A DNA stretch of 63,635 nucleotides, filler included, from Asterionella formosa (taxonomy: Eukaryota), in assembly GCA_002256025.1 (NCBI GenBank). It is 5 parts of 5 records of this genome, joined end to end, with 100 filler letters (N's around TTAATTAATTAA, not from the genome) between each part and the next. Parts side by side here need not be neighbours in the genome. Positions count along the whole stretch, not along the records: positions 1 to 12,651 come from NKIB01007316.1; positions 12,752 to 25,399 come from NKIB01007317.1; positions 25,500 to 38,145 come from NKIB01007322.1; positions 38,246 to 50,890 come from NKIB01007330.1; positions 50,991 to 63,635 come from NKIB01007331.1. One strand, given 5' to 3'. The position numbers and the translations under genes were made by a program. Below the pieces are notes generated by a model, which did not search any database, was not told the DNA's origin, and saw only the letters and a program-made list of their open reading frames with translations. This document shows, piece by piece, positions 1,181 to 56,659 of this stretch (the first letter of the stretch is position 1; the number at the start of each line of letters is the position of its first letter).

Positions 1181-1543
1181 GGTAAGTATGAGGATGGTTG
1201 TTTATTTGGATTGCTAAAGCTAGTAGGTAATCGTTTCAGCGCTTTTTCCCCTTTTGTAGTCTTTTCTACCGGTCGTCAAGGCTACCGGTAGTCAAGTCTT
1301 ACCAATCACCACATGTGTTATGTGATTCGTGTTAACTATAGGCAATTTGTGGAATTGGAAGGAGACTGGTGGGGAGGAGTAAGTACCTGGTGAAGTACTC
1401 CCTCTGGGAGTACTAATAAAAATACGGTATCTAAAGTCATAAATCTCCAAGTAAATTGGTACTCTCTTGTACTCCCTGGTTACCTCGTGGAGTACCGGTA
1501 CCTGGCACTACTCCTTGTACTAGTGCTCGTCTACCAATACCTG

Positions 1544-1613
1544 GGAAGGTCCGAAAATCGAGATATTTAGCTTTTCCTTTTCCTAAGTATAAACGTGTTT
1601 TCCCGGACCTTCA
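1544..1613. mobile_element. MITE family B copy (70 bp)
   Basis: TIR GAAGGTCCG...CGGACCTTC, flanked by a CTG/CTG duplication; inverted homolog at 15698-15770. Confidence 0.7.
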
Positions 1614-1721
1614 CTGTGGAGTCGAGTGCATGCATGGTACCAGGTACCAGGTACGAGGTTCCTGGTTAACAACAATTGAGTCAGGTATACTACTGTTAGT
1701 CTACTGGGACAGATACTTGTA

Positions 1722-2148
1722 TGTTAAAGTATTACCTTTTGATAGATCTCTATTGTTAGACAAAAAAGACTATAGATAGAGACGTTGGTTTCTCTTTCCG
1801 TTTCTATATTCTTATTGTGAGTTTACTAATCTAGTTTTAGGTTGTTCTGTTTGAACAAACAAACGAACTATTCTCCAAATGCTGTTTGCATTTCCAGAAA
1901 CATACAATCATCGATAGACCCATGTCTATCTCACACTTACTGATCATAGGTTTTTAACCATGATCATTCATTTTCAAACTATCGGTCTTCCAAAATTGCT
2001 TGTATCGTCCGGCTCATTATAGGCAGAGTACCAATGTATAATGTGTGGTTGATGAGAGCTTGGTACATCAAAGTTGACTCATTCGAATCGTTTGACTCGT
2101 TTGACTGCGAGTCCTAACTATCGGTACGTAGATGAGCTCACTTTAACA
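1722..2148. mobile_element. Solo LTR (family A)
   Basis: Starts TGTTAAAGT and ends ACTTTAACA; perfect 6-bp flanking duplication CTTGTA; diverged inverted copy at 54391-54737. Confidence 0.8.
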
Positions 2149-2567
2149 CTTGTATACTTGAATGAACATGCCACACATGAGCGATTCCTCTAATGAAAAA
2201 TACCTACCGGTATTACCTGTCGGGCGCCACTCGTTCGGTGAACCTACTCGCGCCTCCCAAGCCTCAAAAGTACTGGTACCAGGTACCAGGTACCTTGTTC
2301 TGTACCGGTGTGTAAGTTCTGTATCTGGCGTTATGAAAGATTCGTCGCTACCGGTATGTTTGAGTGTGTTGTTCGGACTATGGATTTTTGCAACAAATAC
2401 GACTGCCCATGAAAATACATACCAGCATCCAAAGCTATACTAGGCGAATTACAACTATTTTTATCAATTCCATTAGTACGAAGTGCCAGACATTTGGATA
2501 ACTCTTATCAGTATTTTATTTATAAATGTATACTGTATAATTTTGTTCATCTAAGTATTCAAGAAAG

Positions 2568-2577
2568 ATGACGTCAT
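2568..2577. promoter_or_regulatory. Perfect CRE-type palindrome ATGACGTCAT, about 1 kb upstream of the MYB-ANK-HDAC gene
   Basis: Exact bZIP CRE palindrome; function not demonstrated. Confidence 0.3.
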
Positions 2578-3567
2578 TCAAACACGATATATTCTCTTCG
2601 GTTGATGGGAGGATCTACTGTATTTTGTGTTGGCTTACCTGTACGTGCCATCGCATTGCAAGACAGAAGCAAGTCTTTCTTTCGTCGTTGGGTGTGTCAT
2701 TGAAAGGTATGTAGACCGAGTCCCTCTGAATTAGATTTCTTTGAGGCCCCATTCACCATGGTGTGCGTCGAGGGCATGACGAAAGAAGTGCTGCTAGCAA
2801 GCAAACGAAGAAGGAAACCAACGTCCGATTCTGATTTGATGTTTCGCAGTGAAATTTGTTCTTTGCCTAGCAGTGTCCTACGTAGCGCTCCGTAGTATCT
2901 TTAGCGAGAGGGAGTGTCATCAGTGTTTCGCAGTCATTTCCCGGGTATATCTTCACCATCACCGACCGCATCATGCTGTGAATTAAATATTCTACGGCAT
3001 ACGAGAATCCGAAAATCTGAACAAGCGGAACAATCTTCCTTTGAACTACCGCAGCCTCGATCGTTTGTGACCGACTTTCTTGTTCATGCTTCCACTCGCT
3101 TGCGCTGCTTAGAATCAAACGAAGTAAGCACGCACTCGTATGTGATTGTTGCACATCACAATCGTGTAGATGTGGCAGTGCGACGCTTCGATCCAGAATT
3201 GAATCAATGCAATATTGGTTTCGCGGATCCTGCTTCTGGACTCGTTTTGTGTCTGCGGTCCTTCCTTCTTGTAGCCTTGGGACTTATTTCATTNNNNNNN
3301 NNNNNNNNNNNNNNNNNNNNNNNNNNNNNNNNNNNNNNNNNNNNNNNNNNNNNNNNNNNNNNNNNNNNNNNNNNNNNNNNNNNNNNNNNNNNNNNNNNNN
3401 NNNNNNNNNNNNNNNNNNNNNNNNNNNNNNNNNNNNNNNNNNNNNNNNNNNNNNNNNNNNNNNNNNNNNNNNNNNNNNNNNNNNNNNNNNNNNNNNNNNN
3501 NNNNNNNNNNNNNNNNNNNNNNNNNNNNNNNACCGAGCCAAACGTTTCCTGCGTCGTCAAGAACAAC

Positions 3568-6500
3568 ATGAGCACACACGCGCGCACCATGTCGGACGAC
3601 TCGTTGGATCAACTGTCACCAGACGACGGACATGGTCGATTTCTCGACTTGACGGATGGAGCAGGAAATGCCTTTGCCTATTACGACGACGAAGACGACG
3701 ATGGAGAAGGCGAACCGGGATCTCCGGAACAAATTGGCAGAACAGCAGTAGGCACGAATGTTGTCGAGACTGGCCTCGAACACACGGGTCGATGGACCAG
3801 AGAAGAGCATGACGCCTTCTTGTCGGGTCTGAAGCAATACGGAAAGGAATGGAAGAAGGTGGCTGCCAAGGTCAAGACAAGAACTGTCGTGCAGACTCGC
3901 ACACATGCTCAAAAGTATTTTCAAAAGCTGCAAAAAGCGGTTTCAGATAAGGGAGGAGGAGACGCTGGGGTACTGGTGGACATTGAAAGTTTGACGGAAT
4001 CAAAAAAAGTGAGGCGAAAAAAACCTAGTACTACGAAGCAACGATCGCAGAGTACAACAGCAGCAGCACAGCTCATGGCGAATTTGAGTTCCAGTATTCC
4101 CGGAATTTCAACTCAAACCTCAAATGCATATCCAACTCCGCATGGCTTTTCCCAGTCTAGTCTAGCTGCTGCTGCTACTGCTGCTGATTCACTGTTGGGA
4201 TCGTACACTGCACCATTTCCCTTCCGTCCGGTCATGACTATTGTTGCGCCCAACCCTGAGACTTCCATGCGCAGAGGCTTTCCGGAACCGTCTCCTGCTG
4301 CTTGTGGGAAGCGCAAACTGGCCGAGCTTGCCGCAGCACAAATGTTGGCCGGTGTGGCGAATTCATCATCAGTCACTGCTGTAGGGGCAGATGGGGCGGC
4401 AACGCCTCCTCCAATGGATTATGTACCTCAGGAAATGAATTTTAGGCCAATGATGAATTTACAAATTGTTAACCCAGAAACATTGGGAATAACCTTTCAG
4501 CAGAGGAGAACTAGGGCTGATATATCCCCCACGACTCCATGGGATGGGCAGTTGGAAGCGTTGGTTAGGTATGAAAGGGAATGCATTTGTTTTGCTGCAT
4601 TTCGGTTACGTCGCTAACTTGTAATCGTCAATACTTTGCAGTGAACACAAGCGGGAAATGGATGCTACCATGATGCCTCCGGCTCCAAACATTTTTATCG
4701 ATACTTGTCTAAAAGCTCCAGATCTTAATGGTCATGCCGTCGACGAAGAAAGTCCTCCGCATCCCGTTTGTGGACCCGGAAATTCGTACAATCGATCCTC
4801 CCTTCACAAAGCCGTTTGCGAAGTGGATCTAGGAGCGGTTCAACGAGAACTTTCCGATAGTATCAGAGCATCCGCACTTCATCGACGTGATGATGCTGGT
4901 TTTCTACCCATTCACTCTGCATGTGCTCTCTGTATGGTGGATTCAAACAATGCAGCCGCCTCAACAAAAATTACTCATTTTCTCATTAGTGTGGGGGGAG
5001 ACTGCTCGGCCCTGGACGGAAACCGTAATACACCGCTTCATTGGGCAGCGCGTGCAGGTAATGACGAAGTTGCCCAATTATTGATGATGCGGAATTGCCC
5101 CCCAAATGCCCAAAATGATGATGGAGATACTGCGTTGCATTGGGCCATGCGCGCTGGTCGAAAAGGAATGACTGTTGTCAAGGTGTTGCTGGAGAATGGC
5201 GCTCGGGCTTCATTGTTTAATAACGAATTTCGACGTCCACTCGATTCGGGCTGTGAACCATTCATTGACGTGAAGAAGGCTGACGGTGACCCCAAAAAGA
5301 TTAAAAAAGTCAAGCCAGACAGTAAGAAGCGCAAAACAGAGCTGCTGCAAGAAATCCGCGAAGTTCGAGGTAATCTCCTTGTGCTGTCTGCGCAATCAAG
5401 AACGTTAGTATTGCATCACCAAGAATGTCTGGAACATATTCCCAAGTCAGAAATGGATTGGGAGGTTCCTGATCGCGTCAACGCCATTATGAATCGCCTC
5501 ATTCCAAAAATTGGATCATCGGAGACAACTGGTGTCTTTCCACACGAGGTATCAATATCGTCGGATTTTGCTCGAGCGAAGATTGACCTGCTGAGTAGGG
5601 TGCACAGTGCGGAATACTTGTCGTTTGTTAATGATCTTAGCAAAGAGTTGACTAGAAGGAAAGATGAAAATAATGGACTTGACGACTCTACAGCAAGCGC
5701 TCCGGTCGTGCCATTTACACCAATGGTAAGCAGTTCTTTTGTTGCTTGGTTTCTGTCCCTCGCCATTATCTAACTCTTGCTATTTCAGGTCCAAAAGACA
5801 ATGATGAAAACCGATGCAGGAGGCATTAAGAAAGAATCGCATTCCGATACATCGTTCAGTGCTGGATCTCTTCGAGCCGCTCGGCGAGCAGCTGGTGCCG
5901 TCCAGCATGCTGTGGATTGTGTTCTTGTTGGGCGTCATCGCAATGCCTTTTGTGTTGTTAGACCTCCTGGCCATCACGCGGGTATCAAAGGATTGCTAGC
6001 TGGGGGCGAATCATGCGGGTTTTGCATTTTCAATAATGTCGCAGCTGGAGCGTTGCACGCAATATCCGATGAACGCTTGATGTGCCAGCGGTGTGCTATC
6101 GTGGACATTGATGTTCATCACGGAAACGGCACGGAAGAAATTGTGAAACATTTTCATGATCCTGGAAAGCTGTTCTTTTTCTCCATCCACTTATATGATA
6201 CCGATAAGCGTAAAGCAGGATATTCTTTCTATCCTGGTACGGGAGACGAAGATTGTCTAGCACACAATATCATCAATGTGCCTATTGCTCCCATTTGGAG
6301 GGAAGCTGCGCAGCCAGCACCTGTTTCGGGAAACACCGTCCAGCCAAACACTCACAATACACGAAATAAGGCAAAAAATAAGTCTGCCTCTACTGCTTCT
6401 TCAACCGCATCCACGCCAAGGGAAGGGTCTTTGGATGGAGACGAATCACCTGACGGAATTGCTTGTTTGCCGTTAGACCCAATGCTTGAGAGCGATACTG

Positions 6501-6979
6501 CAAGCGACAGTGCGTCAGCTAGGGAATCCTCTTCCATTAGGTCCCAGACAACTCGACCCAGCTCGCCGCGATATAATTCGGCCGGTCGATATGCCTACCG
6601 GAAGGCAGTCCAGAATCGTCTCCTTCCAGCATTGCGGGCATTCAATCCAGATTTGATTCTAATAAGTGCTGGATTTGATGCTGCCAAGGGCGATGTTGGA
6701 AATGCTAGACATTTTGCCGGTGGCAAAGAGAAGATGGGGTTGGATCTCGAACCTGAGGACTATGCATGGACCACTCGAAAGATTATGGAGATAGCCGATA
6801 TTTGCTGTCAAGGGCGCGTTGTGTCAGTACTTGAGGGGGGATACGGACGCAGTCCCATACAAACGGCAAATGTCAACCAGCTACAGAGTCTGGATAAAGC
6901 CTTCTTTTCTGAATGTGCCATCAGGCACCTTCACGGAATGATTGACCCTTATGATTTGGAGTCTCGCTTTCCATGTTAG
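3568..6979 (+). CDS. MYB (SHAQKYF-class) - ankyrin repeat - class II histone deacetylase fusion; exons 3568..4568, 4642..5725, 5789..6979
   Basis: MYB motif GRWTREEH...RTHAQKYF; ankyrin motifs NTPLHWAA and GDTALHWA; HDAC motifs RPPGHHA, GFCIFNNVA, DIDVHHGNGT, SAGFDA, LEGGY. Introns 4569..4641 and 5726..5788 are GT-AG and keep the frame. The start codon is tentative because an N gap lies just upstream. Confidence 0.85.
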
Positions 6980-8419
6980 CTTCGTCGCAATAGCTACACT
7001 TCATGCAGACAACAATGTTGCGCGGGGATGAGGTATAGGGGTTGAATGAGGTACAACTTCCAATTCCTCAACTATATTATGCAACTGTTATGCAAGAAAA
7101 AATATGTTGATATGTGTGTATAAACACCTAGTCAATACTACTCTTCATGAACCTTTAAAGTGCAAGGATGGCAGAATTGACAGCAGTAAGCCTACAAAGA
7201 AAGGGCAGTGAATTCTCAAGTTCAGTTTTTCTTAGCTCCAAATATAAAATGATGATGATATGGTTCTCCAAATCTATGATGAGTAATATGTGCAACAGCT
7301 ACACATGTTGTTGTACCCCCTCCTGTTGATGTAGAACTACTTTTACTTTAAACTCTATATAGCAAGTGTGTGTGTGCTAGACTACTTTANNNNNNNNNNN
7401 NNNNNNNNNNNNNNNNNNNNNNNNNNNNNNNNNNNNNNNNNNNNNNNNNNNNNNNNNNNNNNNNNNNNNNNNNNNNNNNNNNNNNNNNNNNNNNNNNNNN
7501 NNNNNNNNNNNNNNNNNNNNNNNNNNNNNNNNNNNNNNNNNNNNNNNNNNNNNNNNNNNNNNNNNNNNNNNNNNNNNNNNNNNNNNNNNNNNNNNNNNNN
7601 NNNNNNNNNNNNNNNNNNNNNNNNNNNNNNNNNNNNNNNNNNNNNNNNNNNNNNNNNNNNNNNNNNNNNNNNNNNNNNNNNNNNNNNNNNNNNNNNNNNN
7701 NNNNNNNNNNNNNNNNNNNNNNNNNNNNNNNNNNNNNNNNNNNNNNNNNNNNNNNNNNNNNNNNNNNNNNNNNNNNNNNNNNNNNNNNNNNNNNNNNNNN
7801 NNNNNNNNNNNNNNNNNNNNNNNNNNNNNNNNNNNNNNNNNNNNNNNNNNNNNNNNNNNNNNNNNNNNTAGGGTTATGGTTAATTGGTCACAAGGCTGTC
7901 GTACCGGTATTACCCGGGGTTTCTGGAATTTGCATCAAGCCACCGGTTTCGATACCTACCTGATGCTGTCCTACGTCATTTACCCAATGACATCAAGGAA
8001 CAAATTGATAACCATCGTGTTCTTGGTTTATGAATAGCAAGTTCAACGAAAAGTACATCTGGTCATTCGTTAACGTATGATGACGTTTATGGAAGGATTC
8101 TCACTCGCCGGGTTTCTTTCCTGTTGAGTGTCCACAATTTCTATTTCTGGAGGGATGGTTGGCTACAAAAATGAGAAGGCGACGTTGCTTCAATGTCAAT
8201 CGACGCACGAAACATCAAGCTTCCTATACTTCTTTGTACAGCAGTACCGAGAAGTCATGTATGAACCGTATACAGAAATAAAATGTTGCACGAAGTAAGA
8301 GTAACCACGCAACATTACGTAGTACCGGTATTCTAATACGCATGATTGCAACAAAAACCATTGCCAAGTACGATCGCATTTATTTTATATAAAAGTGAAA
8401 ACAACGCCTCTGTCCCCCC

Positions 8420-12651: not shown

Positions 12652-12751
12652 NNNNNNNNNNNNNNNNNNNNNNNNNNNNNNNNNNNNNNNNNNNNTTAAT
12701 TAATTAANNNNNNNNNNNNNNNNNNNNNNNNNNNNNNNNNNNNNNNNNNNN
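12652..12751. other. Artificial scaffold linker (Ns with TTAATTAATTAA)
   Basis: 100-nt spacer carrying stops in all six frames; the same linker recurs at 25400, 38146 and 50891. Confidence 0.95.
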
Positions 12752-13054
12752 ACCATGTACCGGTACCGGTACCACGTAGCGACAATTAATCACCAGTCTT
12801 GAGTTTTGCATTTTCTTATTTGCGATTATTTTTGATTTAGTACCAGGGTACATCAAACGTCGACCTTCCGTCGAAAAAGGCGGAACAATGTGATGTTGGA
12901 GGGTTCCATAATCATGCCACCAACGTCTGATTTCGAACAGCGTTGTCGTGGCTGGCGACTAGCCAATCGCCAGAATTCCCACGGATCTTTGGATGTCGTC
13001 AGGCACAATGAGACATTTCGAATCTGACAGTAGATTCATGGAATAACTGTCTGT

Positions 13055-14513: not shown

Positions 14514-15697
14514 TACATTTGGCAATTCGAAGGAACGTCTCGCTCGGACACACATTGTTTCTAAAACATCATGCACACAATAGACACGCATAGAATTCTC
14601 GTACATATCACTTTACAAGCACATACAATCATCCTCAAGGTACTCAATCCGAGCGCACATACCCACACACTTCGGATTACGACAAATCAAATAATTTCCA
14701 TAGCTATCATTGACAATGAATCTAGACCTTCTGTCATTCATTTAAGCAATTTAGTTCCACTTGCCTACGGATACTTACCTAGATTTGTCACCGATTCCTA
14801 GCTTGGCTTACCTCCCCCCGAGAGCCTAACCATGTCTACATCCAATCTCAGACGTCGTCGCATATGCCAACATTTCCATATTACCAATTCCTATGTTGGC
14901 TCGCAACCACAAATAGTTGGCATCCCTTGGACTACAAAAGTCGTATTATGACAATACACATACAAATATATTTACTATGGGGAAAACGTTAGAATCAGCA
15001 ACGAATCAAATGAGCACATGTGACTGGTTTGCAAGAGAATCGTTTTCGTTTTCGTTTCGTCGGTTATAATATACCAGCATATTCTTGCATTTTCCCTCCT
15101 CATCCGTGTAATTTTGCTTTTACCCCTGTTATTGCTTACATAGCATGTAAATGTGATACCGGCCATTAGTCGCCTTTCTATGTACCAGGTATATCTATTG
15201 GTAAGTAAATAACGCAACTGCAACGACTACCGGTACATTACCTGGTACAAGGAACTTTCACGATTCCTGTGATTTACTGTACCTGGTAATGGAACCATCA
15301 GCCTGCAGTCCATTTTAACAAAGACATAAAATCAACATTTCGACTCCGAGTAATAATGCCAAAGTAACAGTACCTGGTACCAGGTACCAGGGTACCAGGG
15401 TACCCAACCTAAGTTTTGATGCAAGAACAAACTCGAGAGCGAGCTCTGCTGCTCCTCTCATGGACACAACTACGTATGAATTGTCCCGATATTGATGAAG
15501 GAAACTGCGTAATATCTACATTTATGTACTGGGATATCGTCCGGATAATGTAATTACATATTGGTATTGCCTTTGTTTTCCGACGTGGACGCGGGCCTCG
15601 TGACGCATCCTTGATAATGGTGAGCACGGCGACGCGAACATACGTACGAACAGCATCACATTCATCCATCCATATGCTTCCAGTATTCTCACACCAC

Positions 15698-15770
15698 GGA
15701 ATGTCCGGTAAAACACGATTTTTACTTATAAAAACATTTTAAGCTAAATATCTCGTTTACCGGACCTTCC
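15698..15770. mobile_element. MITE family B copy (inverted relative to 1544-1613)
   Basis: GGAATGTCCGG...CCGGACCTTCC, flanks CAC/CAG; interior resembles the reverse complement of 1544-1613. Confidence 0.65.
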
Positions 15771-17174: not shown

Positions 17175-17622
17175 TACGTGTTGTGGTGATGCATGGATGG
17201 CACAATCAATGGTCCTGGTTTTCTTGAAATCTTAGTTTTTGAAATCTTTATTGATTAACGTTTATTGAGTCTAATATTCCATTGTAGTTTGCCAAGGCAG
17301 AAAGGCTTGACGATTTTTAGCATGGTTTCAAAATAGCTAGCATTGCATTATTACTCACTCAGACTTTATACAGGTGTCATAAATTGATGTGAAAGATGCT
17401 TGCAAACCCGGTAATATACCGGTAGTTGTGTTCCTACTTTTGTACCGTCGTAAGCTAGGCCCCCCTTCACTTCTTGTCAGAACGGAAACACAATACCGGT
17501 TGGTGCTATATGGAAAATGTCGTTTTGGCAGACATATATATATAGCTGTGGTGCGACTACCCGGTGGTAGTTTTATTGTGGATAGGCTTCGATGATTTTC
17601 ATCGACAGTCAAAAAGTCAAAA

Positions 17623-40245: not shown

Positions 40246-40338
40246 ATCAATCAGTATTTTTGTATAATCAATCAGTAATCCTGTATGATCAATCAGTAAT
40301 TCTGCATGATCAATCAGTTTTTTTGTATGATCAATCAT
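40246..40338. repeat. Tandem array of about 21-bp units (ATCAATCAGT...TGTATG)
   Basis: Four full units and one partial unit of ATCAATCAG(T). Confidence 0.75.
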
Positions 40339-41326: not shown

Positions 41327-43466
41327 ATGAGAAACGCATCCTCCACACCACCATCCTTACCTATCACGGATGAGTTGACAGGAGCGGAAGAACAACCACG
41401 GAAACCTCTAGTAGTGAGACAGTTTAGTGAAAGTACAGCGGCATCGAGTGTTCAAGATTTGGTCATGCCATCATCTCCAAGCAAAAGAAAGGACCCACCT
41501 GTGTTGGATGTGATTGCTAAACACGGTTCTCCTCCATCACAACCGGCATCAAAAGAGAAACCAGATAGAAATAAGAACAAAAGGAATACAATGAAAGACC
41601 AAGCGCAGCTTAACATTATTGTTATCTGTATGGTTTTGGCATACACACGAATGTTAGACGAATCCGAGAACATCTGTCACGTGGAACCAGTCCTGGCCAA
41701 AACCATTGTTGACATGGGTTCCAATTCACAAAACTACTTAAAGCCGAAGATAGGCAGACCCTACCCTGCCGAGTAAGTTTAAAAAATATATTGTCGCTCG
41801 GTGTTGTATCTTTGATGGAAACGTGTCATTCACTTCGCTTCTCGTTGCACCCACGATCATGATTGACAGCATTTGGGACACTTGGACACTCATTAGCGAA
41901 TTTCCACCTAATTTTGAAGACGACCTCTGCATTCACATCTTGGAACGAGATTCTGTTTGCAACGAATTCGTGTATTCCATTCTACATTCTCAATGTGCAG
42001 ACACTGTCTATGTTGTTTTCGGTGCAAAAGAAGAAGATCAGCATGGATTAGGTCAAGGAATGACACGCCTGCTCCCAGGTAGTGTGGATGGGTTGTGGGG
42101 GGATGGATCATCCTTAGTGGGACATTTGAAACGATTCATACAATATTCATTGAAATCACCGAAAACCATTGTGGTGTGTGGCCATGGTGGGGGCGGAGCC
42201 TTGGCTGCTATTATTGGGGCATTGTTGACAACAACAACAACAACAACAACAACACCAATGCTGAAGCCACTACAAATATGGACCTACGGAGCTCCCAAAG
42301 TTGGAGATGCAACGTTCCGAAAAATTCATCGTCAAATGGAACATCAAGGTCGTCTGCATCATCTTCGATTTGTAAATCAAGGTGACAGCATCCCTATGCA
42401 ACCCAATGCATCATGGGATGTTTGGTATCGATCGGTCGGATCCAAGATTGTGTTACCATTTACTTCCAAGACCACCTGTTTAGAACATTCCCATTCCCTT
42501 TTTGCCTATCTACAACGAGTGCAAGAGTGGAAGTGTCATGCTCCAAGCCTTGAAAATTGGCAAACCCAACAGAAGATCCAGGATCGTCAACGAACAAACA
42601 AGAATCAACGATTCGTCATGATCCTGAGTTGCATTTTACTTATTTATGGACCATTAGTGTACCTAGCCTCCTCATGGAATCATTCGGTGACACAAGAAGT
42701 TCCTGCTGCCGTGGATATACCGAATGTGCTACTTGAAAACCAAGAGGTAATTCACTACTCCGGAGATACTTCGTTGGTCTCCGAGGACCAATCGGAGTGC
42801 GCCACTGCATCGATGGAGGCGACTCCGGAAAATCACATCGAGTTTGTTGAAGCCACTGTCGAGGATACAGAGACTGTGGAAAGTAGGACCACGAATGCGA
42901 ATTCGGCTGCAGTTACGGCACTTGGTACGGTTCCATGGTTGGAAGGGGAAACTACTGCGGATGTTCAGAGCAGCCAGATCATCAACCCCTTGAACAACCA
43001 GAACGACGAACATGATACTGCCATAGCGTACGACCCAGGGAACGATACGTCCACCACCGACAACGAAGAATCCACTGCAGCAGATCCAGTTTCTGATATG
43101 CACTCTCGCCTGATGGCTGCTGTTGTGTCTGCTGCTGCTCCTTTGCCAGCCTTTATTATAATGGACTCCCCCGCTTCGCACGCCTTGGTACATTCATCAT
43201 GTTTACGCCAGCCTAATGTCCCACTTTTCAATATTGGGATGACCTTTCAACCACCCCAGCGACGTTTGTTGACGTCCGTATCGTCCGGAGAATATGGGAT
43301 TAGTTTGATACTGGCCCGATCGAGTCGACGACGTATCAAACAAATGTTGAACATGTGGGAGAAGGAAATTTTTTACCAACGCCACCTCAGGGATCATCGT
43401 GACAATGTTTTCTCAAGTACCAGTTTTACTACTAGAATGAATCAAACGCTTCTGGATGCCATATGA
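41327..43466 (+). CDS. Lipase class 3-like membrane protein lacking the catalytic serine; exons 41327..41772 and 41870..43466
   Basis: IVVCGHGGGGALA, IWTYGAPKVGD, RFVNQGDSIPMQP, H..FAYL; transmembrane helix FVMILSCILLIYGPLVYLA; frame-preserving intron 41773..41869. Confidence 0.75.
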
Positions 43467-44151
43467 GGAACAACAGTATTATGTGAACGGCAGATTAGAC
43501 GTTGATGTATAAAATATGTTGGTATATCTATTCCATACCGTTCCGTTTTGCGAATCACAACAACGAATACAAGATACCGGTTACCTGGTAGACTACTACC
43601 TGACACAACGATCGACTGAAAGACCAGCATGCTTACAGTTTTGAACACTATAATTAAATGGCTGGCCTACCCTTCGTCATGCGGCCCCGCTCGTTTCTCC
43701 ATTTTTTGGCGCGCCTATGAACGGAGATTGCATGACATGTACAAAAGACCAATTTAGGTACATCATTCTTATCATTGATTTATCAAACGGCATACCCAAT
43801 ATTCACTTATGAATATTATTGATAATGGACGATTAAATAGCCGACAATGATCTTGTATCCTACTTTACTACCGTTAGTACGGTGTATGGTTGATAATTAT
43901 GAATTATACAAACCGGCATTACTCCGTATCCAATGTAAATAGAATTATATACCGCCGCGCCAGTGAGGATGAAATCACGTTTCGTTCCACCAACATATCT
44001 ACCGTCCTCACATTCCGGCAGACTCTTTCTCGACACAGCAACACCGTCGTCCTCTATTACTATTATATCAACATACAAAATTTGTTTGGTTTGTTTGGTC
44101 AATAAAATACTTTATTAAGCACATTTGACGAGCAAGTAGATAGAATCTATC

Positions 44152-45142
44152 ATGTCGAACAAGGAAGGAGGCGCTGCTGATGTTACTCGACGAATGATTT
44201 GTGGAGGTTTAGCTGGTATGATTGCCAAAGTACGTTGCTTGGTTTCGTATGTGTATATATACCAATCGCTTTTTGAAACTACTTAACAAACATCAAACAA
44301 ACATATAGACTGCAACAAACCCATTAGATCGGATCCGTATGCTATCACAAACAGGAGAACATGGAGGAGGTGCAAATCACAGTATAGTTGGACTGTATCG
44401 TTCTATTTTACGTCACGAAGGGATCCTTGGACTATGGGCAGGAAATGGGGCTAATTTATTGCGAGTTTTTCCTTCCAAGGCCATTGTTTTTTCTAGCAAT
44501 GATGTATACACGTCTTGGTTGAAACATATCACTGGCACTGAGACATATAGTAGCGTCTTGTCCTTTTGTGCTGGTGGCATGTCGGGTATGTCTGCGACAG
44601 CTGCGACATACCCATTGGACTTGGCGCGTGGACGGATCACTGGCAAATTAGCACCAGACAAGGCATATCGTGGTGTCCTCCAAACCATCTCCATGACGGT
44701 AAGGGAAGAAGGTATTATGGCGCTATACAAGGGTGCGTTACCAACCCTGTTGGGGGCCATGCCATATGAAGGGATCAAATTTGGAACTGTCGGGGTGCTG
44801 GAAATATGGTTCCCGCCAGTGAAGGAACATGACAGTGACAACAGTAGTACTAAAAGTTCTCCACTCCGAAAAATGTGCATGGGAGGTATGGGAGGCATCA
44901 TGGCAGGTCTCATTACTTATCCGAATGATACCATCCGGCGGTTGTTGCAATTGCAAGGTAGTCGAGGGACTGAAACGAAATTCACTGGATACTTTGATTG
45001 CATGAGAAAGACGTATGCACAACATGGAATCACAAGATTCTATCGCGGTGTAGGGCTCAATATTGTTAGAATGGCACCAAATACAGCGGTTCAATTTGGA
45101 TCCTACGAAATACTGAAAAATTTAACATCAGAAATGTTGTAA
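44152..45142 (+). CDS. Mitochondrial carrier (SLC25), CoA/ADP-carrier-like; exons 44152..44229 and 44309..45142
   Basis: Three carrier repeats PLDRIR, PLDLAR, PNDTIRR; WAGNGANLLRVFP; intron 44230..44308. Confidence 0.92.
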
Positions 45143-45179
45143 TTGTAAAGAGATGAGCTTATTCTTACTCATTTACATT

Positions 45180-47864
45180 TTATTCTTGTAACATGGCCTT
45201 GTGAATGCCATCACAAACCTTTTGCAATATGCCCACGCCAGAACATGCAGTTTTCGACATTGATGCTAGGGAGAAATTTTCCAACTCCGCATTAACTTTT
45301 CCATTCTGAAAAACGGTCAAGCCACGAGGAAAAGAGGCAGTTCGATCGTAGACGAGATGGAGTTGAATGTCATGGTCCATGCCGACAATGAGCTTAATAG
45401 CTTTATTGCACTCCGTTATGACAATAGTGGACTGGACAAACGGACGTTGCCTGATGAGGCTCACATCCGTTCCCACCAATTCGATACGACCAAGAATTGT
45501 CCCAAACCGATTTAGAAACTCTTGTACACTTTGACAGGATTTCGAAATCATGTTTCGAATGGTAGTAATACAAAATAGCGCCCGAAACAGGCTTGCCGGC
45601 GCTCCAACGTCCTTGATGGTATGAACTTGAATGTTGTAAGATGAATCTGTCAGGTTGCAACACACTGTCGTCTCTAACCCGAGCAACTCGTGAGGAAAAG
45701 CGACCTTGAAATATTCGGCTTGGTACATTTGCAGTTTGAATGGAAATAGCGCCCTCGTGGCAAAATAGGTCAAACCACACCAAGGATATTCGAGTACAAT
45801 TCGGGCGTGTTCCTTGGTCTGTTGAGCCGCCACGACCTGCTGCTCCAATCTGGCAATGGCAGCTTCTTCTTGGTCGATTTGACGTTTCAACGAAGTCTTT
45901 TCCAGTGTCAAGAGATTAGTGATTGTAGAAAATTCTCTATCCAATTTCGTTGCGAACAATTTGAGCTGTGCATTGACTTTTTCAAAAGCGGCTTGCTCCA
46001 AACGCTCCACATCTACAATGGTGATTTGTTCAGCTTGTTTCCAATGCTTTGAGTTTTTGAGTAGTATGCCCTTAGGCTCCACGGTCAAAAGGCTCATGGA
46101 CCACTGTTTCAAGGTTGTCAGGAGGCAATCATAAATTTGGGATCTGACTGGCCAAAATGAATTGTTCCATTCTTCCAGGTCAGTCGTCAGCCCAGTTCCT
46201 CCTCGTGACGCCAAGGTTGTCAATGCTTCACCAGCGCTAATTTTTTGCCGATTGATCAATCGTTCCATAACATTCTACTATACAAAGCAACACACAAAAA
46301 AATGCAGTTAGCTGGATTCGGTTTGTCGTTCGAGCGATACCAAATGGGGGGCACGAACCTCCGAACATTGTTGAAAGCCCACGTCCAATTGTCGGGTAGG
46401 ACTAGTTTCATGTTGTTCTGCCATTGGCGAGTCCATTTGCAAGCTAGTCACCATGGCTTGTGGCATTCCTTCAATGTCATCCTGCAGCAATCCTTTGGAT
46501 CCAGGCGATGGGGTAAATACCGTTGAATCCCGTCGTCTGGTCGTGCCGTTTCGTTTGTTTCGCCGAGTTGTTTCCGTAAAGAGCATGGCTTCCAATTCTT
46601 CATCGTCGTCGTCTTTGATGAACTCATCAAAATCTTGTTCCCATTCACTGAGAATCGAAGTGTTGCATTTTGTTTCTGCTGTTTCCGCCAGTTCCTCTTG
46701 CGTGTTATTCTTTTGTTCAATGGGAAATCTCTCTCTAGCAACGTCAATGGGCATGGGTGTGAGTGCCCCGGTCGGTTCTTCTGCTATGAATTCTGCTGCC
46801 ATGGAGTGTCCAAACTGTACTTTCCTGGAAGGAGTCATTGCGGGGGACAACGACTCTCCAGGAGACGGAGTGGAATATGCTGACAATGGTGCGATATCGT
46901 TGGGGTTACTGATTGTGATTGAATGATGGTTCGGTCGAGAGTAAATGGTGGGAGTCTGAATGGTAATGTTGACAATTGCGTTGTTTCGCTTCTTTGTTGA
47001 GGACAAGCTGCATGAAAGAAAGTGAGTGATTGAGTGAGTGTTCGTTTGCAGATGCATGGTCTGAATCGCAAGTGTGTGTGTTAAATGTCTCTGAACGCAC
47101 CATGACTTGACAGGAGGTGCTCTAGTGGCCGACAAGGATTGTTGCTTCAAGGGTTCCGCTCCATAGCACAAATTCCAGTAGTGCTTGGCGAGTTCTTCAG
47201 GCGAGAGGCCCTGTCGAATGCGATATTGTGTGGCACTTTCATTGTCGTCATCTGACGTCGGGGAAGCAGCCGTGGAGCTCCAGCACTCTTGCAATGCCCA
47301 GCACGACGCATCCGTCGCTGTTGCAGCATCGTGGTTCTCCTTGCCACAATGTGGAAACGACCGAAGACGGCGTCGTTTGGAATGGTTGCGGCGCACTTCT
47401 TTCCCGAGTCGTTTGGCCGAGACCATAACCGGCAGAGGAGAAAATGCGGGAGGTGTCTGTTGTTCAAAGCACAAGTAGTCGTCATCGTCTTGAACTTTTG
47501 GTGTTGTGATAATCATTGCCAGTTGCTGCTGCTGCTGCTGTCCCATGGAGTGCAATGCTGCTGCGGATGATGATGATACTGCACTGCTGCTGGAGGTGAT
47601 TGTGGCATCGCGAGGGGGTGACGTTGGCGGGAATCGCTCTGACATAGCAGCAGTATCAGTATTTTCTGATGTAGAAGCAGCAGTAGCAATGCCAGCATTT
47701 CCGGTAGTACAATGATCTTCTACATCAGACATTCGTAGCAGTGGACCTCGTCGTCGTCGTCGCCTTCGTGGAGCCAACCTTGGAATCAACTTGTTACTAC
47801 TTCCTCTCCATCGATTCCAAAGGGATGCAGTAGGAACATCGTCGTCGTCGTTGATGCTTGCCAT
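45180..47864 (-). CDS. Candidate kinetochore scaffold KNL1/Spc105-like protein; introns 47008..47100 and 46275..46358
   Basis: The spliced product has KSCL (SILK-like) and RKVQF (RVxF) motifs in a disordered N-half, then a coiled coil and an alpha/beta C-terminal region (FLNRFGTILGRIELV) resembling Knl1 RWD domains. The gene model is well supported; the identity is inferred. Confidence 0.55.
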
Positions 47865-48478
47865 TGTCTACTGAAATGTTGGTTGGCTGGGGTTGACTAC
47901 TGGTACAGTAAGTACCTGGTATACGTGTGATGGAAGCGTTCTGATGTGATGATGTATGAACTACACAGTATGTACAGTATCAAGAGAATCTGACAGCTTC
48001 CATCTCTTCCCTTCTAATGGTTATTATGTAGACCTACTCCGTTTCAGTCTGTTTCCTATTACACACACACACTCTCTCTCTTCTCTTCTCGCTCTTTTTA
48101 AAATTAGACTTTAGACGACCCTGGTACCAAGGTAGTGTCATGTATTATTGTTATACGACTTATATATGTATGATGAGGCAGGTACTGGTAGGTGATGATT
48201 CGAACTGGCGGCGGATCGAAACAGCGTGGAGATACATATATTATATGTGTTTGTAAGAAAATTCCGGTTGTAACAAAAGCCACTGTCCACAAACAAAAGG
48301 AATACAAATCATTCGTTCATTGTTTTATAAAAAGTCATTGCCATACGACATCAAAAAGGGCCGTGGCACATGCACGACATAGATCTGGCTAGACCTCGAA
48401 CATTTGTATACATGATGATGATAGGTAAGCAATAATATGTATGTACCGGTATATGGATTGTGGCATTTTTCCTACGAG

Positions 48479-48562
48479 CAAGTTGCGGTTTGCCTAAACT
48501 TTCATTTTAATCTAGGATAAAAAAAGCTAAATCTTTAGTTTCAGGAATATTACCGCAACTTG
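48479..48562. mobile_element. MITE family A copy (inverted), followed by a lone TIR at 48573
   Basis: CAAGTTGCGGT...ACCGCAACTTG; interior resembles the reverse complement of the other copies. Confidence 0.75.
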
Positions 48563-48673
48563 AAAGTACCGGCAAGTTGCGGTAATTTCGCTCTACATGT
48601 CATTTAAGTTTGGCGCGAATTTTGGAAAGCAGCTATTGTAGTACTGTACCAGGTAATATTAGGTGATTGAATG

Positions 48674-49079
48674 TGTTGAAATAGTCCGTACTCCTTCCCG
48701 CGGGTTGGGTCTCTCTTCACGTAGACTCTTACGTGATCGTAGTACTACCTAGTACCACTTACTTTCTCTCTTGTCTCTGCTTCTAGCCTTTCTGCTAGAT
48801 AGACTAATTGACCTTACTGTCAATTAACACACTGTTTCCTCGGTTGATAATCTAAAACTCAAATTAAATTATAAGCTAAACTAAATGTTTCCTTTCCATG
48901 CATCTTTGCTTCCTGCAAAGTCATTCTAAGACTCTCTTCGAGTTTCCACTTAACATTTCCATAGAAATCTTCAATCTCTGATCTCGTTAGACAGCTGATT
49001 GACGTGGCAATGCAATATTCGACTCATTCGATTACAATCGAGTCCACAATCCTTGTGACTCGGGCTAATATTCTTGACA
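48674..49079. mobile_element. Possible old solo LTR (family B)
   Basis: TGTTGAAATA...TATTCTTGACA, 406 bp, flanks TGAATG/GGAGTG; shares a GACTCATT motif near its end with the other LTRs in the window. Confidence 0.4.
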
Positions 49080-49595
49080 GGAGTGCTGGTATACTACATC
49101 CATGTCACCTTTTGCTGGTGTGATACTCACTCCCTTTACAAGGGTACCTGGTACCGGCATCGTGCTCCTTGTGTGTGCTTCACAGCAACCAAAGCAACTC
49201 AATAGACTACCGGTACTGTAGAGAAAAATTTTCAAGTCGTGGTGGGGGGAACAAAACCAGCTCAAGTCATATTGTTTGATGGAAGAGGAACGACATACTG
49301 GGTATATGCTAACAACTATTATACATTGTAAGATAAGAACAGTGCATATGGTTGTACATAGCTTGCAAGTTTGCTCTGAATAACGAGCATGGTTGATCCC
49401 AACTTTCAATTCAGTCATGAAGCATCGGGATCAAAGAAATTAAAGATAAAAACCAAAAATTTGTCAGATTCAACTACAATCAAGGAATTCTGCCATTTTT
49501 CTTCTATAGGCAAGAATGGTGTTTTCCGAACGACCAGCCTTATTGTCTGCTGCAAGAACCTGTTTTGCTTGAGCTGCGAATTTTCCACTTCATCT

Positions 49596-50883
49596 AAACC
49601 GTGTATTACGTGAAGTGACCATCACGTAAATAAGCCTAGTTGATTTTGAATGGATCACATGAATTTGTTGAATACATCAAATGCTTACTTGAATATATCT
49701 ATATATTATCTGAATACATCACATCAATTATTGGATCAGAGTATCATGCATGCATTCCTGATCATCACTATATTACTTGATCACCTTCACATAATTATTT
49801 GAAATACTTCACCCAATTATTTGAAATACTTCACTTAATTCTGTAATTTAGTTCACATTGCCTTATAATTTTGTTCACGTAATTCTATAATATAGTTCAC
49901 GTAATGCATTAAATTTGTTTACGTAATTTAGAAGTACTATCAAATATGTTGATTACTAATTCAACTACTGGCCGGTGCCGGTATTTCACATTACATGGGA
50001 AATAAATCTCGATATGCAATCAAACAAAGCAGTTCTTTCAGAATGGCATCTTCAGTCTTGAGAAGGCAGGCATCATGAGACGTCTGTAAGGACAATGCAA
50101 GACAAACAGAAGCTGTTCATTCTGAATGAAAAAATTATTCATTCTTGAAGAGGCATCATGGTGCAATATTGCAACAGGAATGCATCACACTGGCTTCCTT
50201 CTTGTCCTTGAAATGACTTCTGCATTGACCTGCAAAGAATTACATAACAACAGTGTGTCAGTAATTCATTTAATAGAACTAGCAACAGCAGAAAGCAACA
50301 CACACATGTGCTATTCAACTGTTTCACGGAGCAGTCAAATTGACAGCAAGATACCGGCATTAGCCACCAGCCACCAGCCACCAGGCAGCACCGCAACTCA
50401 GTGATGCGCTCAAAAAAATGCTCCTGTTGTGAAATGGACGGCTAAAATCTTGAGGGGGGATGCTAGTTGTAAGGGTCGTCCCCATGTTGAAAATAAATTG
50501 TTCACAGTGGTGTTGAATGTTGGTGTTTTTATGAATTCAGAGGGTCAAAAATCCTGGCGCAGCCATGACTTCCTCTTTGAACCAACAGAACCTACAATCT
50601 ACACGAAAAAATCTGGCGCAATCTTGCTAACAATTTCGTTGGGACAAATTTTTGAGGCTACAAGTGTGACTTGAACAAATATGACAAGAGGGAGAGGACA
50701 CAGCCAAAAGTTACTCCTAATTGCACATGCACTGGATGATCTACCATTAGCCTTATCCTACTACATCTAAGACGCGAAATACGCCACTTTTCGAAATTTC
50801 GTCTACGTATGAGTGTTAATTATGTGGTACTTCACATGCATTAATGCCACTCTTCACGTAAAAAAGATTACTTTTAACGGTTT
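49596..50883. mobile_element. Possible non-autonomous DNA transposon with subterminal repeats
   Basis: Imperfect inverted ends (AAACCGT...TTACGTGAAG) and an array of about 21-22-bp TTCAC/TAATT units at about 49790-49930. Confidence 0.4.
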
Positions 50884-50890
50884 CATGTGA

Positions 50891-50990
50891 NNNNNNNNNN
50901 NNNNNNNNNNNNNNNNNNNNNNNNNNNNNNNNNNTTAATTAATTAANNNNNNNNNNNNNNNNNNNNNNNNNNNNNNNNNNNNNNNNNNNN
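50891..50990. other. Artificial scaffold linker
   Basis: 100-nt N/TTAATTAATTAA spacer. Confidence 0.95.
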
Positions 50991-51559: not shown

Positions 51560-51685
51560 ACTGCTAATAGAAATAACTGGCAAACGATTGCAAAAATGAG
51601 ATAAATTGCTGTTGACACAAGTTAGTTTCAACCAGAATTTGAGCAGGGCCACCGCATCGACCAGGACCAAGACCAATTGCAGTTG

Positions 51686-52472: not shown

Positions 52473-52538
52473 GGGGAACGGCTCCTCAGTGGTTAGCACA
52501 CCCTTCTGCAGCGGCGGGTTCGATTCCTGCATTCTCCA
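52473..52538 (+). pseudogene. tRNA-like sequence (degenerate tRNA or SINE head)
   Basis: Acceptor stem GGGGAAC/ATTCTCC-A, A-box-like CTCAGTGGTTAG, T-arm GCGGG-TTCGATT-CCTGC and a downstream T-run; anticodon arm not recoverable. Confidence 0.6.
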
Positions 52539-52564
52539 GCTGTCTTTTTCATGTAATCCCTAAG

Positions 52565-52760
52565 ATGTGGGTTGGTTCAAAGGGAGAATGGCCACTACTT
52601 CCAAAGGATGAAGGTACAGGCTCAATGATTTCTGCATTTGTCTCTCTTGAGCATGGGTTACTCCTACAGATACCAATGAATGTCCTTGCTGAAATAAGCC
52701 TCTGTCGCCTTGGGAAGAACTATGCAGACGAGGACGCTGCAATTTAAGTGGATGGTGGAT
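52565..52760 (+). pseudogene. IS630/Tc1-like DDE transposase fragment
   Basis: WVGSKGEWPLLPKDEGTGSMISAFVSLEHG matches the W...LPK..G.G.M.SAF pattern that follows the first catalytic Asp. Confidence 0.55.
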
Positions 52761-54390
52761 GACAAAAAAGACAAATATTGGTAAAAGGCTACAGACAAAG
52801 TTAAACTTCCATTTCAATTCTTGGAATTTTAGGTTCAGGAAAACCTAATAATGACTTGCTGCCTTCAATACTTTTGTACAGTGTAAAACGGATGACGGAT
52901 TCAGGTGTATAGATTGATCTTGGTACATGATGCATTGGGTTACCGGTACAGTACCAGTTCCTGGTGCCCTACTACATTTACCTGGTATGATGGTTCTACA
53001 CGTAGATAAAAGACCGGAAAATCTAGATTTTTCTATTAATGGGAGATTGATAACAATACCTGTAAGTATGACTGGGGTATGGAATATCAAGTACCAGAGG
53101 ATCATTTAAGTACATCCCAGAGTTGGAAAGAATATTGTTGGCATGAACTTTTCGTTGTCCTTGTCACAATCATTAAAAAACATTCAATATTGCGAAACCA
53201 TATATTATTGATCTGCAGTTTACCACAGCTCACCTTTGGTATTCCTGCACTATAAAGCTCATCAAAGCAATCAAACAAAATCCATAATTCATATTCATTC
53301 TTTAATATACTTTCTAGCTCTTCAGAGAAATTGTAAGTGAACTTTGTGTTGTGGTATGTTGCGTTGGTTGCATGTTGGTAAAGCAGCTACCATCCTAACA
53401 GCTCGTTGCATGTGTGGCATGTGGTTTTTAACATAGGCTGTTAACGATCATAAGTTACAGCCTTGTAAATATTAGTTTGATTATGTAGTTGTCTGATCAA
53501 TTCTGTTTACAAAACTAGTATGGAGAATGAATCATTTGTTTTCGTTGTCAATTCTGCCAAATTCAAGCCCAATTGATTGCCAGCAATCATCGATTAACCA
53601 CCCTGTTCTCCTTTCTAGACCCTTCCTTAGAATGTACTTGCTGCCTAATAATGATCAATTTTAATATTTGTAACTCCAGCACATTTTTGATTGTTGAATG
53701 ATGGAAACGACCGAGCTTAGTGGCTTCTCTGTCACCATGATGTATATTTCTCACTGGGAGTCCACCATTTGTTGCAAGCTGGTAAATCAGGTTGGCTTGA
53801 TAAACATGCAAACAAAAGAAGAAAGAACATGATTCATTGAATTATATAAGGCAGTGATGATTGAACTCCATCAGGTTTTTAATAATAGACTCCTCAACAA
53901 AGGGCTTCATGAGCGATGGAAGTGCATATCATAGCTAAGCTCTGCTCATTGTGCAAGATTATTCATACCAGCTAGTAGTCTGGATAGATTTACTTAAGAC
54001 TATAATTTTGCGATCAAAATTCTGATTTTGAAACTTTGATTCAAATGAATTGCTAGTTATTGAAATAAATGGGGGAATTTGGTTCAAGCATCTGCCAGAA
54101 GAAGCTTTCAATAATGATGCCATTATTGAATGCTGTCAATAATTGTCGACAGAACTAGTAGCACTGAGACTACAAATTGCTAGCTATTTATTATATTCAC
54201 TAATCATTTCATCTACATTCTATCATTTGCTTGAAGTTGAAATGAAGTGATTGTGAGTTGTTATTTAAATTTTGTGTTCATCCTAGTATAGTAACAATAT
54301 TTTTTGTCGTATCCTCGTCCGCCTTGCAACGCATTATCAGTTCTTTCTGTATTAGGTATGGTTGGGTGTGGTCCACCCGAGAAAGAAGTC

Positions 54391-54737
54391 TCTTAAAGTG
54401 AGCTCATCTACGTAGTTATGACTCGGATTCAAATGAGTCAAATGATTCGAATGAGTCAATTTTGATGTACCAAGCTCTCATCAGCCACACGTTCAACCTT
54501 GTTATTCGTCTACCTACAATGAGCTGGAATGATATAAGCTATTTCGGAAGATCGATAGTTTGAAATGAATGATCACTGATTATAAACCTATGATCAGTAA
54601 GTGTGAGATAGACATGGGTCTATCTAACTAGTTTAGTAACTCACAATAAGAAAATAGAAACGAAAGAAAAACAAATGTCTCTATCTATAACCTCCTTTGT
54701 CTAATGATAAAGATGTATCTAAAAAGTTACTTTAACA
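54391..54737. mobile_element. Solo LTR (family A), inverted and internally deleted
   Basis: Reverse-complement homolog of 1722-2148; ends TCTTAAAGT/ACTTTAACA; degenerate flanks GAAGTC/AAATTC. Confidence 0.75.
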
Positions 54738-56659
54738 AAATTCAGGGTGTGAAGAAGAAGAATTGCTTGGGGGGGGGGATAAAAACTGAGAGTCATCCCT
54801 ATTTTACCCTATATTACGACTCAAATTATTTTAGTCCGATTACATGGCAATGTTGAAGCAAGTTTGAAGGTTATTGTAGCTCATCCTCTCGGGTACTACT
54901 AGATCTAATTATAACTTGGGTGAGCTCAATATTTCTTGAGATATAAAAGATTCTGATGTCATCGTTTTGCCTCAAAAGGATGACTTTCAGTATATTGGTT
55001 TTTAACACATACATGAGGAAATTTTGATCTTCCATTTTTTTCGTGACGGTTTGAGAAATATTTAATTAGGTCTATCGCGTGACAGCCTTCCACTTGTTGT
55101 TTGACAATTCTCATACATAAAACATATAGGTCATACAATAGTAACTGCTGGAGATAACCTGGTAATGGTAACAGGTAAGCATCATGACGATGCTGCTGAT
55201 TGACCAAGAAGCCATGACAACGATGAAAGACAATTTTGTTTAAATATTGAATTATGAATGAATAATGGGTTTTTAAAATGTAATCTCGAGTAGATTATGT
55301 TTTATCGTAGAATGGCGCATCTGTTCGAAAGTGTTGCATCTTGATGCGACAAAGAGGGATCGAGAAATCATCGATAGTGTTGAGCGCCATTGTGAGTTTT
55401 CCGATTATACATTTTCGACTATATCTAAACAAGTATACAAGCTACAATAAAATTCGTTTCATAATATACTAGCAAATAATCTATTCTACTCAGAGGACTA
55501 ATAACAACATAGCTTTTCATTTGTTTTAATGGTTGTACATAATGATAATGCCGGCAAAAAATAGATTTATACGCTGGTGAGATTCTGCCGTCAGTGCGTA
55601 CATACCGGTAAATTGATCGCTGCCTTGAATCAATGCGTGGTGAACAGGACGGAGCAACAGCGCTCCATGTGACATCTTCTGCAAAATAAAACCATCATAT
55701 TTCCATGATGCATCATAGGATTATGATCATCTGATCATAATTTTTCGTTATATCATCTAATAATTTTGATAAATGCCCTTGTAATTTAAATAGTAACCCT
55801 TTTGACTATGTAAATTTAATTATTATATGTACTGTTTCTGTTAGGCTCCTTTATTTAAATTTCTTGGTAGGATAATGTCGTACCAGCTAAAGTAATGTGG
55901 TTTGGCTCATCATCCTCTCCAGTCCTCACTCTGATTCTTGCAACAACGACAAAGCAGCCATGTAGAGCAGAGGAACAAGTGTTTGTGATAAAATCTTCAT
56001 TTGTCGTTCAAGTCACTATATGTCTTTGATGAATCACTATCTACAGTGTACAGTATGTTCGTATGCAATCCGTTAAGAGCTTGAAAAGAAATCCAATGAA
56101 AACCAAATGGCTCATCACACAAAAAGAATATTTCCGGTCTGTCACCAGAGCATCGATGAGTGTTACAACCTCAATCATAGCTAAATAGCATCCATTATAG
56201 AACAGCATAATCTACTTCTATGTTACATCGTCTCTCTAACAAAAACGTAATACATCTAGAATTGAAATGCAGCATAGCAGGCGATATGCACGAAGAAGCA
56301 TGAGACTGTATATGTATAGTAACAGAGTGATTCTGGTTTCGTAATTTTCATGTCTCATTAGATTTCCTTTGTCATCGTACTAGTTCCTTACCTTTGAAGA
56401 CAGGAGCGTATACTTTGATGTATCTGGAAGGGTTCAATGAATGGCAGCAGTTGGATTTAGACACAAACCTTGACAAAAGCACTATTTTGTAAATGAAAAG
56501 CCAGACACTTTGACCTATCGCCCACCGGCCAGTCTATACTGCAAAACTGCAAGAAGCACAAGTTGAATGCCCATTTATGTATTCATGTTTCAGTTGTGCA
56601 ACAATGTAAAATATTAGAAACCGCAAGTAACATTTCATCTAATTACGGTTTTCAATTTT

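Follow-up and report, generated by a model that had tools for sequence, protein, structure and literature searches.

Why is the 8-bp palindrome TACCGGTA so common in the non-coding DNA of the diatom Asterionella formosa? The question arose from a 63,635-nucleotide stretch of assembly GCA_002256025.1 (the window), in which five pieces are joined by N44-TTAATTAATTAA-N44 spacers; the TTAATTAATTAA letters (12696-12707, 25444-25455, 38190-38201 and 50935-50946) are non-biological and inflate TTAATTAA counts. A diatom host is also borne out by one of its genes, whose named homologues come from diatoms. A first-pass annotation had likened the word to the highly iterated palindrome HIP1 of cyanobacteria, which is common in coding DNA as well, and had proposed that an active process writes or maintains it, with methylation-coupled repair, transposon footprints and a boundary-binding protein as options. 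As judged from sequence, TACCGGTA and a sister word, TACC(A/T)GGTA, would be the accumulated excision footprints of two IS630-Tc1-mariner (ITm) transposon families, a reading to which a probability of about 0.85 was assigned. TACCGGTA is likely the repair scar of an excised, TA-duplicating pogo transposon with CCG...CGG ends, and for TACC(A/T)GGTA the likely origin is excision of a second family, whose ends are CCA...TGG.

All 24 positions previously listed for TACCGGTA held exact copies, and no further copies were found in the window. This is far above chance (dinucleotide shuffles: mean 0.29, maximum 2, 0 of 100 reaching 24), and every piece contributed (6, 6, 3, 7 and 2 copies). The window carries no annotation; 'coding' here refers to open reading frames (ORFs), and 22 ORF blocks were treated as genes. 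The proposed absence from genes held for these blocks, none of which contained a copy; two copies (41153 and 41256) lay inside a 153-codon stop-to-stop frame, which had been excluded from the blocks as likely spurious, with no family scan of the frame. Further counts were made in a 1.24-Mb sample comprising the five window pieces and 120 fetched stretches, partly transposon-bearing contigs (788 kb non-coding and 334 kb ORF). For the non-coding part, expectations came from Markov models (orders 2 to 5) whose training sequence had the motif family masked; models of orders 5-6 trained on the unmasked window were dropped as circular. The excess persisted after this correction (425 non-coding copies observed vs. 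5.4, 9.0, 19.7 and 31.0 expected, by rising order), and the word was scarcer in ORFs (7.8 vs. 53.9 per 100 kb). Frame-preserving copies inside ORFs numbered 8 against 1.1 expected; these eight (e.g., L194, L200, L076 and L113) fell mostly in Thr/Gly-rich linkers, and are possibly two-residue insertions left by excision. Genome-wide, 28,528 copies were counted in 68.4 Mb, or about one per 2.4 kb, vs. 1,718 for the reversed control.

TACCGGTA is one of a group of related words, TA-CC(N0-3)GG-TA, that the first-pass annotation had overlooked and of which the window additionally holds 22 nine-mers and 7 ten-mers. Class I was defined as TA-CCGG-TA (TACCGGTA), and class II as TA-CC(A/T)GG-TA (TACCWGGTA) with its extra-G forms. 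Observed and expected counts in the sample were 460 vs. 9.7 for TA-CCGG-TA, 438 vs. 10.5 for TA-CC(A/T)GG-TA, 45 vs. 3.6 for TA-CC(C/G)GG-TA, 57 vs. 1.9 for TA-CCAGGG-TA and 10 vs. 0.35 for TA-CCAGGGG-TA, and exact family words made up 1.05% of its non-coding bases. TACC(A/T)GGTA occurred 26,886 times genome-wide (control 902), so that exact words of both kinds together number at least 55,414 in 68 Mb, against roughly 500 surviving elements. TACCAGGGTA (about 3,393 copies genome-wide) far exceeded TACCTGGGTA (168, at the control level of 152), which argues that the extra G is placed during formation and not by later slippage.

The origin of the words was read from alignments of repeat copies, in which the word in one copy faced a bare TA in another, with clean gaps of 6, 7 and 13 bp. 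In a paralog test 450 TACCGGTA sites were queried, of which 77 had a paralog and 56 were classifiable; an empty-TA copy was present at 33 of these 56, vs. 15 of 382 for a TA-N4-TA control (p 3e-23). For TACCWGGTA (432 queried, 41 with a paralog) the empty-TA copy was present at 16 of 29 sites, vs. 12 of 384 in the control (p 6e-14); in both tests, sites within one repeat family are not fully independent. Where at least three informative paralogs were available, the majority were empty at 11 of 26 TACCGGTA sites and 8 of 15 TACCWGGTA sites, vs. 1 of 214 and 1 of 221 for the respective controls. Near-matches in the paralogs were scattered single changes of the word, as decay predicts, and the commonest one-change neighbour of TACCGGTA was the CpG transition (274 vs. 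45.7). As the CpG mutates faster than the other positions (0.25 transitions per position vs. 0.03 to 0.06 for other transitions), it is probably methylated. Together the alignments indicate that TACCGGTA is inserted whole and decays afterwards, the opposite of the gain by substitution and subsequent upkeep proposed for HIP1.

These results sort the earlier proposals. An active process does write the motif, since whole units are inserted at TA in paralogs, and of the three options offered the evidence supports transposon footprints. Methylation-coupled repair as the maker or keeper of TACCGGTA is contradicted by the insertion origin and by old copies that decay, fastest at the CpG. A boundary-binding protein is not needed for the origin of the word, and is compatible with an upstream bias described below. 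Of the likeness to HIP1, the genome-wide over-represented palindrome remains; the word arises by 6-bp insertion at TA rather than by substitution, and then decays.

Candidate donors were sought by profile search. DDE_1 gave 93 matches in the genome, DDE_3 none, and Transposase_1 none in the genome or in any control. Two pogo-like families, A and D, are bounded by TA-CCG...CGG-TA (144 and 377 ends, respectively, at ≤1 mismatch). Family A has near-identical copies of about 2.46 kb and a 433-codon frame with a DDE_1 match (E 3e-20) and D-35-D spacing, as read from the sequence; the DDE_1 domain with its DDD triad, short terminal inverted repeats (TIRs) and a TA duplication are the marks of the pogo group. 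In both families a second frame, of 120-145 codons and similar between the two, faces the transposase (L026:3323-3760; L028:1578-1931); no Pfam match was obtained for that of family A. A further candidate, family F (422 matches), was rejected because its upstream flank is conserved and its boundary is hence not a true end; 25 such flanks were removed before the context test.

The second donor, family E, is bounded by TA-CCA...TGG-TA, with 549 exact ends, one of them in the window at 58576. An intact copy (L340:5-3540; G000:C14068) spans 3,532 bp and has a 779-codon frame, in which the last two candidate aspartates are separated by about 37 residues. The family (L315-L359) has 154 genomic matches, and metagenomes yielded 377 related stretches. 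The transposase had no Pfam match, its homologues are unnamed or hypothetical (two from Fragilaria crotonensis), and its profile gave no match to the sequences of solved structures. Its predicted structure (pLDDT 88.6) was closest to Mos1, SETMAR and Sleeping Beauty (Z 13.0, 12.8 and 11.4). With a predicted Mariner-type transposase fold, TIRs and TA duplication, family E is an unannotated ITm lineage, and its target preference is GG-TA-CC: full copies sit mostly in GG-TA-C, often on older scars. A 4-bp GTAC duplication was ruled out, as full copies with other flanks keep only TA. Across 79 metagenomic loci with E relatives the visible ends were mostly TA-CCA, and two relatives with CCA ends (L362 and L363) had TACCWGGTA stacks alongside. 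Three marine relatives appear to begin TA-CCGG. Among the relatives that apparently begin in this way (L352, L353 and L355; L408, L415 and L416) the elements' own ends read as the word, and such relatives may also donate TACCGGTA.

Scars were matched to donors by target context. For both words, the scar core equals the terminal bases of resident TA-duplicating elements. G preceded the TA at 23 of 81 A and D ends (0.28), compared to 0.30 of TACCGGTA flanks (p 0.99), and at 57 of 68 E ends (0.84), compared to 0.78 of TACCWGGTA flanks (p 0.37); the crossed comparisons differed (p 1e-21 and 2.5e-17). Class I was therefore assigned to A and D, and class II to E. Ends adjoining an older scar made up 35% for E (24 of 68) and 3.7% for A and D, as against 32% of class II and 7.9% of class I words. 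At three sites the element, a class-matched scar and an empty TA were found at one TA across different repeat copies; two further candidates of this kind (E_L268 and E_L344) proved to be E insertions into older scars. The different flanks of the two words led to rejection of a model with one donor and an untemplated A.

A mechanism can be proposed on this basis. Mos1 and Sleeping Beauty cut with a 3-base stagger, and the Sleeping Beauty footprint is TAC(A/T)GTA. A transposase cutting three bases inside each end would leave 3' overhangs. With CCG overhangs, annealing at the terminal CG would yield TA-CCGG-TA; with CCA overhangs, an A-A mismatch would form at the junction and yield TA-CC(A/T)GG-TA, and fill-in slippage on the CC template would add an extra G, which would account for its occurrence after A but not after T. 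Because family E prefers GG-TA-CC, its scars likely attract E again, and mixed stacks would be built up. If elements jumped at modest rates for long enough and were purged as whole copies, their scars being tolerated, on the order of 100 scars would accumulate per surviving element. As a rough dating, divergence of about 0.06 changes per site corresponds to a mean age near 1e8 generations if mutations arise at near 5e-10 per site and generation. To leave about 1e5 scars, each genome would then have to undergo about 1e-3 events per generation (about 1e-6 for each element), and the required excision rate is not extreme. Short 3' overhangs derived from the element ends remain after ITm excision, and only 8 of 94 excisions in rice left just the duplication, according to the available portion of PMC4423477.

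Several observations weigh against excision of A, D and E as the source. No excision event was observed, and the same portion of PMC4423477 describes stereotyped footprints as rare in rice. Four public runs compared with 38246-50890 were swamped by high-copy repeats, and a few long pieces show length differences of 6 to 9 bases. Only filled paralogs were found at 23 of the 56 class I sites, 21 of 77 were unclassifiable, and the sample was drawn in part from transposon-bearing contigs. The three-state sites rest on one element end each and on paralogs, so that independent reuse of a TA is possible, and two more sites pair an element with the other scar class (B_L125 and D_L226). Family B, with TA-CAG ends, has no clear scar, TACAGTA being only 1.3-fold enriched. 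At position -2 there is a slight discrepancy between A and D ends and TACCGGTA flanks (p 0.03 for the two families combined, 0.008 for D by itself), and the profile match between families E and A is colinear in the catalytic motifs but weak (E 0.054, probability 1%). Finally, scars are 3- to 4-fold upstream-biased at ORFs (upstream:downstream 208:64 for TACCGGTA and 202:46 for TACCWGGTA) against an even TA background, and surviving E ends lack this bias (7:8; A and D 10:4). The upstream bias would follow from insertion into open chromatin if whole elements were purged, but a function would explain it too.

By analogy with oomycetes, the footprint reading could be extended: excision would have mass-produced a promoter word, with scars gathering upstream via a self-seeding loop and being recruited as transcription-factor sites, and the oomycete words TACATGTA and GTACCGGTA, of which one has been proven to be a Myb site, would have arisen likewise across stramenopiles. 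This extension is speculative and we consider it unlikely. It would be very unlikely, in turn, for the words to be primarily the sites of an abundant dimeric promoter or boundary factor, with selection as the main cause of their abundance. The upstream bias fits such a factor, as do the upstream motifs of oomycetes, TACATGTA and GTACCGGTA/ATACCGGTAT, in the available text of PMC3520976 and PMC10031896, and the Myb protein that binds TACATGTA in that of PMC11134190. Selection for binding sites gives no account of whole-unit insertion at TA, donor-matched flanks, the asymmetry of A before G or free decay in repeats, and it can act on top of a footprint origin.

A source of the TA insertions unrelated to excision of A, D and E (templated break repair or a further element, for instance) was judged highly improbable. 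The evidence consists of paralog pairs and not of excision events, and further repeats share TAC-CWG edges, among them a small miniature inverted-repeat transposable element (MITE); the ends and flank preferences of A/D and E nevertheless match the two words crosswise. The MITE was itself tried as a donor and rejected: among 18 full copies, 7 had a direct CWG duplication, 1 an inverted one and 10 neither, and these duplications imply that it lands in the word and does not make it.

CCGG and CCWGG are classic targets of C5 methylases, and a HIP1-like ratchet, in which a cytosine methyltransferase acting on these cores and biased repair convert and keep near-matches, would also draw on the probably methylated CpG. 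Two C5 methyltransferases encoded in the genome are bacterial-like, with the PCQ motif intact and eukaryotic-looking neighbours, and a DNMT2-like gene is also present (L461:451-1935; L462:937-2940; L463:1432-3105). Both methylases fell below the Dcm subfamily cut-off (134 and 105 bits vs. 710), the scattered near-matches of the paralogs stem from decay of an older word, and the excess of CpG-transition neighbours represents loss, not upkeep. The model works by substitution, in the available text of PMC4390886, whereas here paralogs lack the six bases, and we find the ratchet scarcely credible. The two methylases may leave room for a role of methylation at the CpG, not for a methylation origin. 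The chance that replication slippage produced the words, as the expansion of a degenerate microsatellite, is close to negligible, for although arrays of 2 to 4 units occur (133 of 857 runs in the sample), 724 runs are single and neighbouring class II units agree in their middle base in 40 cases and differ in 39, as expected of serial events.

Within the window, single exact TA-CCGG-TA matches lie at 1283-1290 (a predicted class I footprint), 1493-1500, 2205-2212, 2349-2356, 7902-7909, 8323-8330 (76 bp ahead of a bZIP ORF), 17417-17424, 19375-19382, 35363-35370 and 38927-38934. Two copies each occur in 39194-39277 (39194 and 39270) and 41153-41263 (41153 and 41256), and TA-CCGG units are stacked in twos at 12758-12771 (12758, 12764) and 28270-28283 (28270, 28276). 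Paralog searches gave no copy spanning the sites near 2205-2349 and 22899. The family scan located two stacked TA-CCAGG units (class II) at both 1638-1653 and 2277-2292, TA-CCAGGG-TA (class II with the extra G) at 12841-12850, and a cluster at 15183-15288 of TA-CCGG-TA (15228) with class II words (15183, 15239 and 15280). A mixed stack of four units, CCTGG, CCAGG, CCAGGG and CCAGGG, each TA-bounded, follows at 15371-15402. The same scan placed TA-CCTGG-TA at 19254-19262 and 43582-43590, TA-CCAGG-TA at 38771-38779 and, near the 5' end of a stop-to-stop frame, at 23696-23704, TA-CCCGG-TA at 23203-23211, TA-CCGGG-TA at 28363-28371 and TA-CCCTGG-TA at 40828-40837, with stacks of CCAGG and CCAGGG at 19521-19537 and of CCCGG and CCCTGG at 63617-63633. 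Combinations from the scan were TA-CCGG-TA (22899) with TA-CCGGG-TA (22913) at 22899-22921, TA-CCTGG-TA (47913) with TA-CCAAGG-TA (48125) at 47913-48134, TA-CCGG-TA (48444) with TA-CCAGG-TA (48647) at 48444-48655, and TA-CCTGG-TA (49145) with TA-CCGG-TA (49208) at 49145-49215. At 52941-52987, TA-CCGG-TA (52941) and TA-CCTGG-TA (52979) lie where repeat copies vary in the number and kind of units. The TA-CCGG-TA at 55603-55610 is a repeat passenger, exact in 4 of 8 other copies and with one change in the remaining 4 of 8; as this site is common to copies of one repeat, not every TACCGGTA copy is a separate event.

The family E end in the window (58576-58605, plus strand; TA then CCA...), identified by end match, stands beside a CCAGGG word and is of the predicted class II donor type. 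Just inside it and adjoining a scar stack is a Copia-type long terminal repeat (LTR) retrotransposon on the minus strand (58694-63614; LTRs about 97% alike). Small MITEs with 3-bp CWG duplications, presumably Harbinger/NuwaI-like, often occur inside TACCWGGTA (19275-19363, 39037-39123 and 48489-48606; also 1544-1613 and 15741-15770). By repeat comparison, the one at 19275-19363 is 89 bp long with a CTG duplication and lies within a TACCTGGTA, a lodger and not a donor; that at 39037-39123 is a second copy, with a CAG duplication. Short tandem arrays of 21-bp, about 60-bp and 22-bp units occur within high-copy repeats at 40246-40350, 20467-20642 and 49864-49930, respectively. Consecutive same-strand frames at 2905-6979 carry Myb, ankyrin and histone deacetylase domains, and are possibly one multi-exon gene.

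TACCGGTA thus likely records transposon traffic rather than a HIP1-like methylation signal. Assays usually show footprints singly; in this genome they rank among the most over-represented words and fill about 1% of the non-coding DNA, and this abundance makes the scars countable and datable as a record of cut-and-paste activity and break repair in a diatom. Promoter motif searches would call such scars regulatory elements. Among the literature matches listed, from a search outside which most subscription papers and supplements fell, there was no diatom report of TACCGGTA or of genome-scale footprints. For the oomycete motifs, a footprint origin was dismissed on abundance and conservation in the available text of this literature (PMC3520976, PMC10031896, PMC11134190). 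The diatom case deprives abundance of its force as an argument, and oomycete genomes are open to the empty-site paralog test as well.

Among known systems, ITm footprints comprise Tc1 TACATGTA (cited in PMC3520976), 0-4 bp for Passer (PMC9976928) and 0-3 bp for ZB (PMC7913693), as far as the accessible text of these sources goes. The diatom words resemble them in that the duplicated TA is kept with few terminal element bases between, and the donors are TA-duplicating DDD transposases; they differ in number and uniformity, in having two donors with two separable words, and in that one donor's scars are its own preferred target. Family A is like the DD35D type of the pogo superfamily (Passer-like) in its DDE_1 domain, D-35-D spacing, short TIRs and TA duplication; it is unlike that type in ends that start CCG. 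With HIP1 (GCGATCGC; available text of PMC4390886) the class I word shares an 8-bp palindrome, a methylatable core and a genome-wide excess. HIP1 is modelled there as made by substitution and kept by methyl-directed repair, whereas TACCGGTA enters as a complete unit, comes with variants of other lengths, decays and is scarce in ORFs. The closest likeness in form is to oomycete motif-1 TACATGTA and motif-9 GTACCGGTA (PMC3520976, PMC10031896) and the PsMyb37 site (PMC11134190), which, in the text available, share the TA-XXXX-TA form and include one identical word. These palindromes are abundant upstream of genes in another stramenopile group, and are read there as transcription-factor sites.

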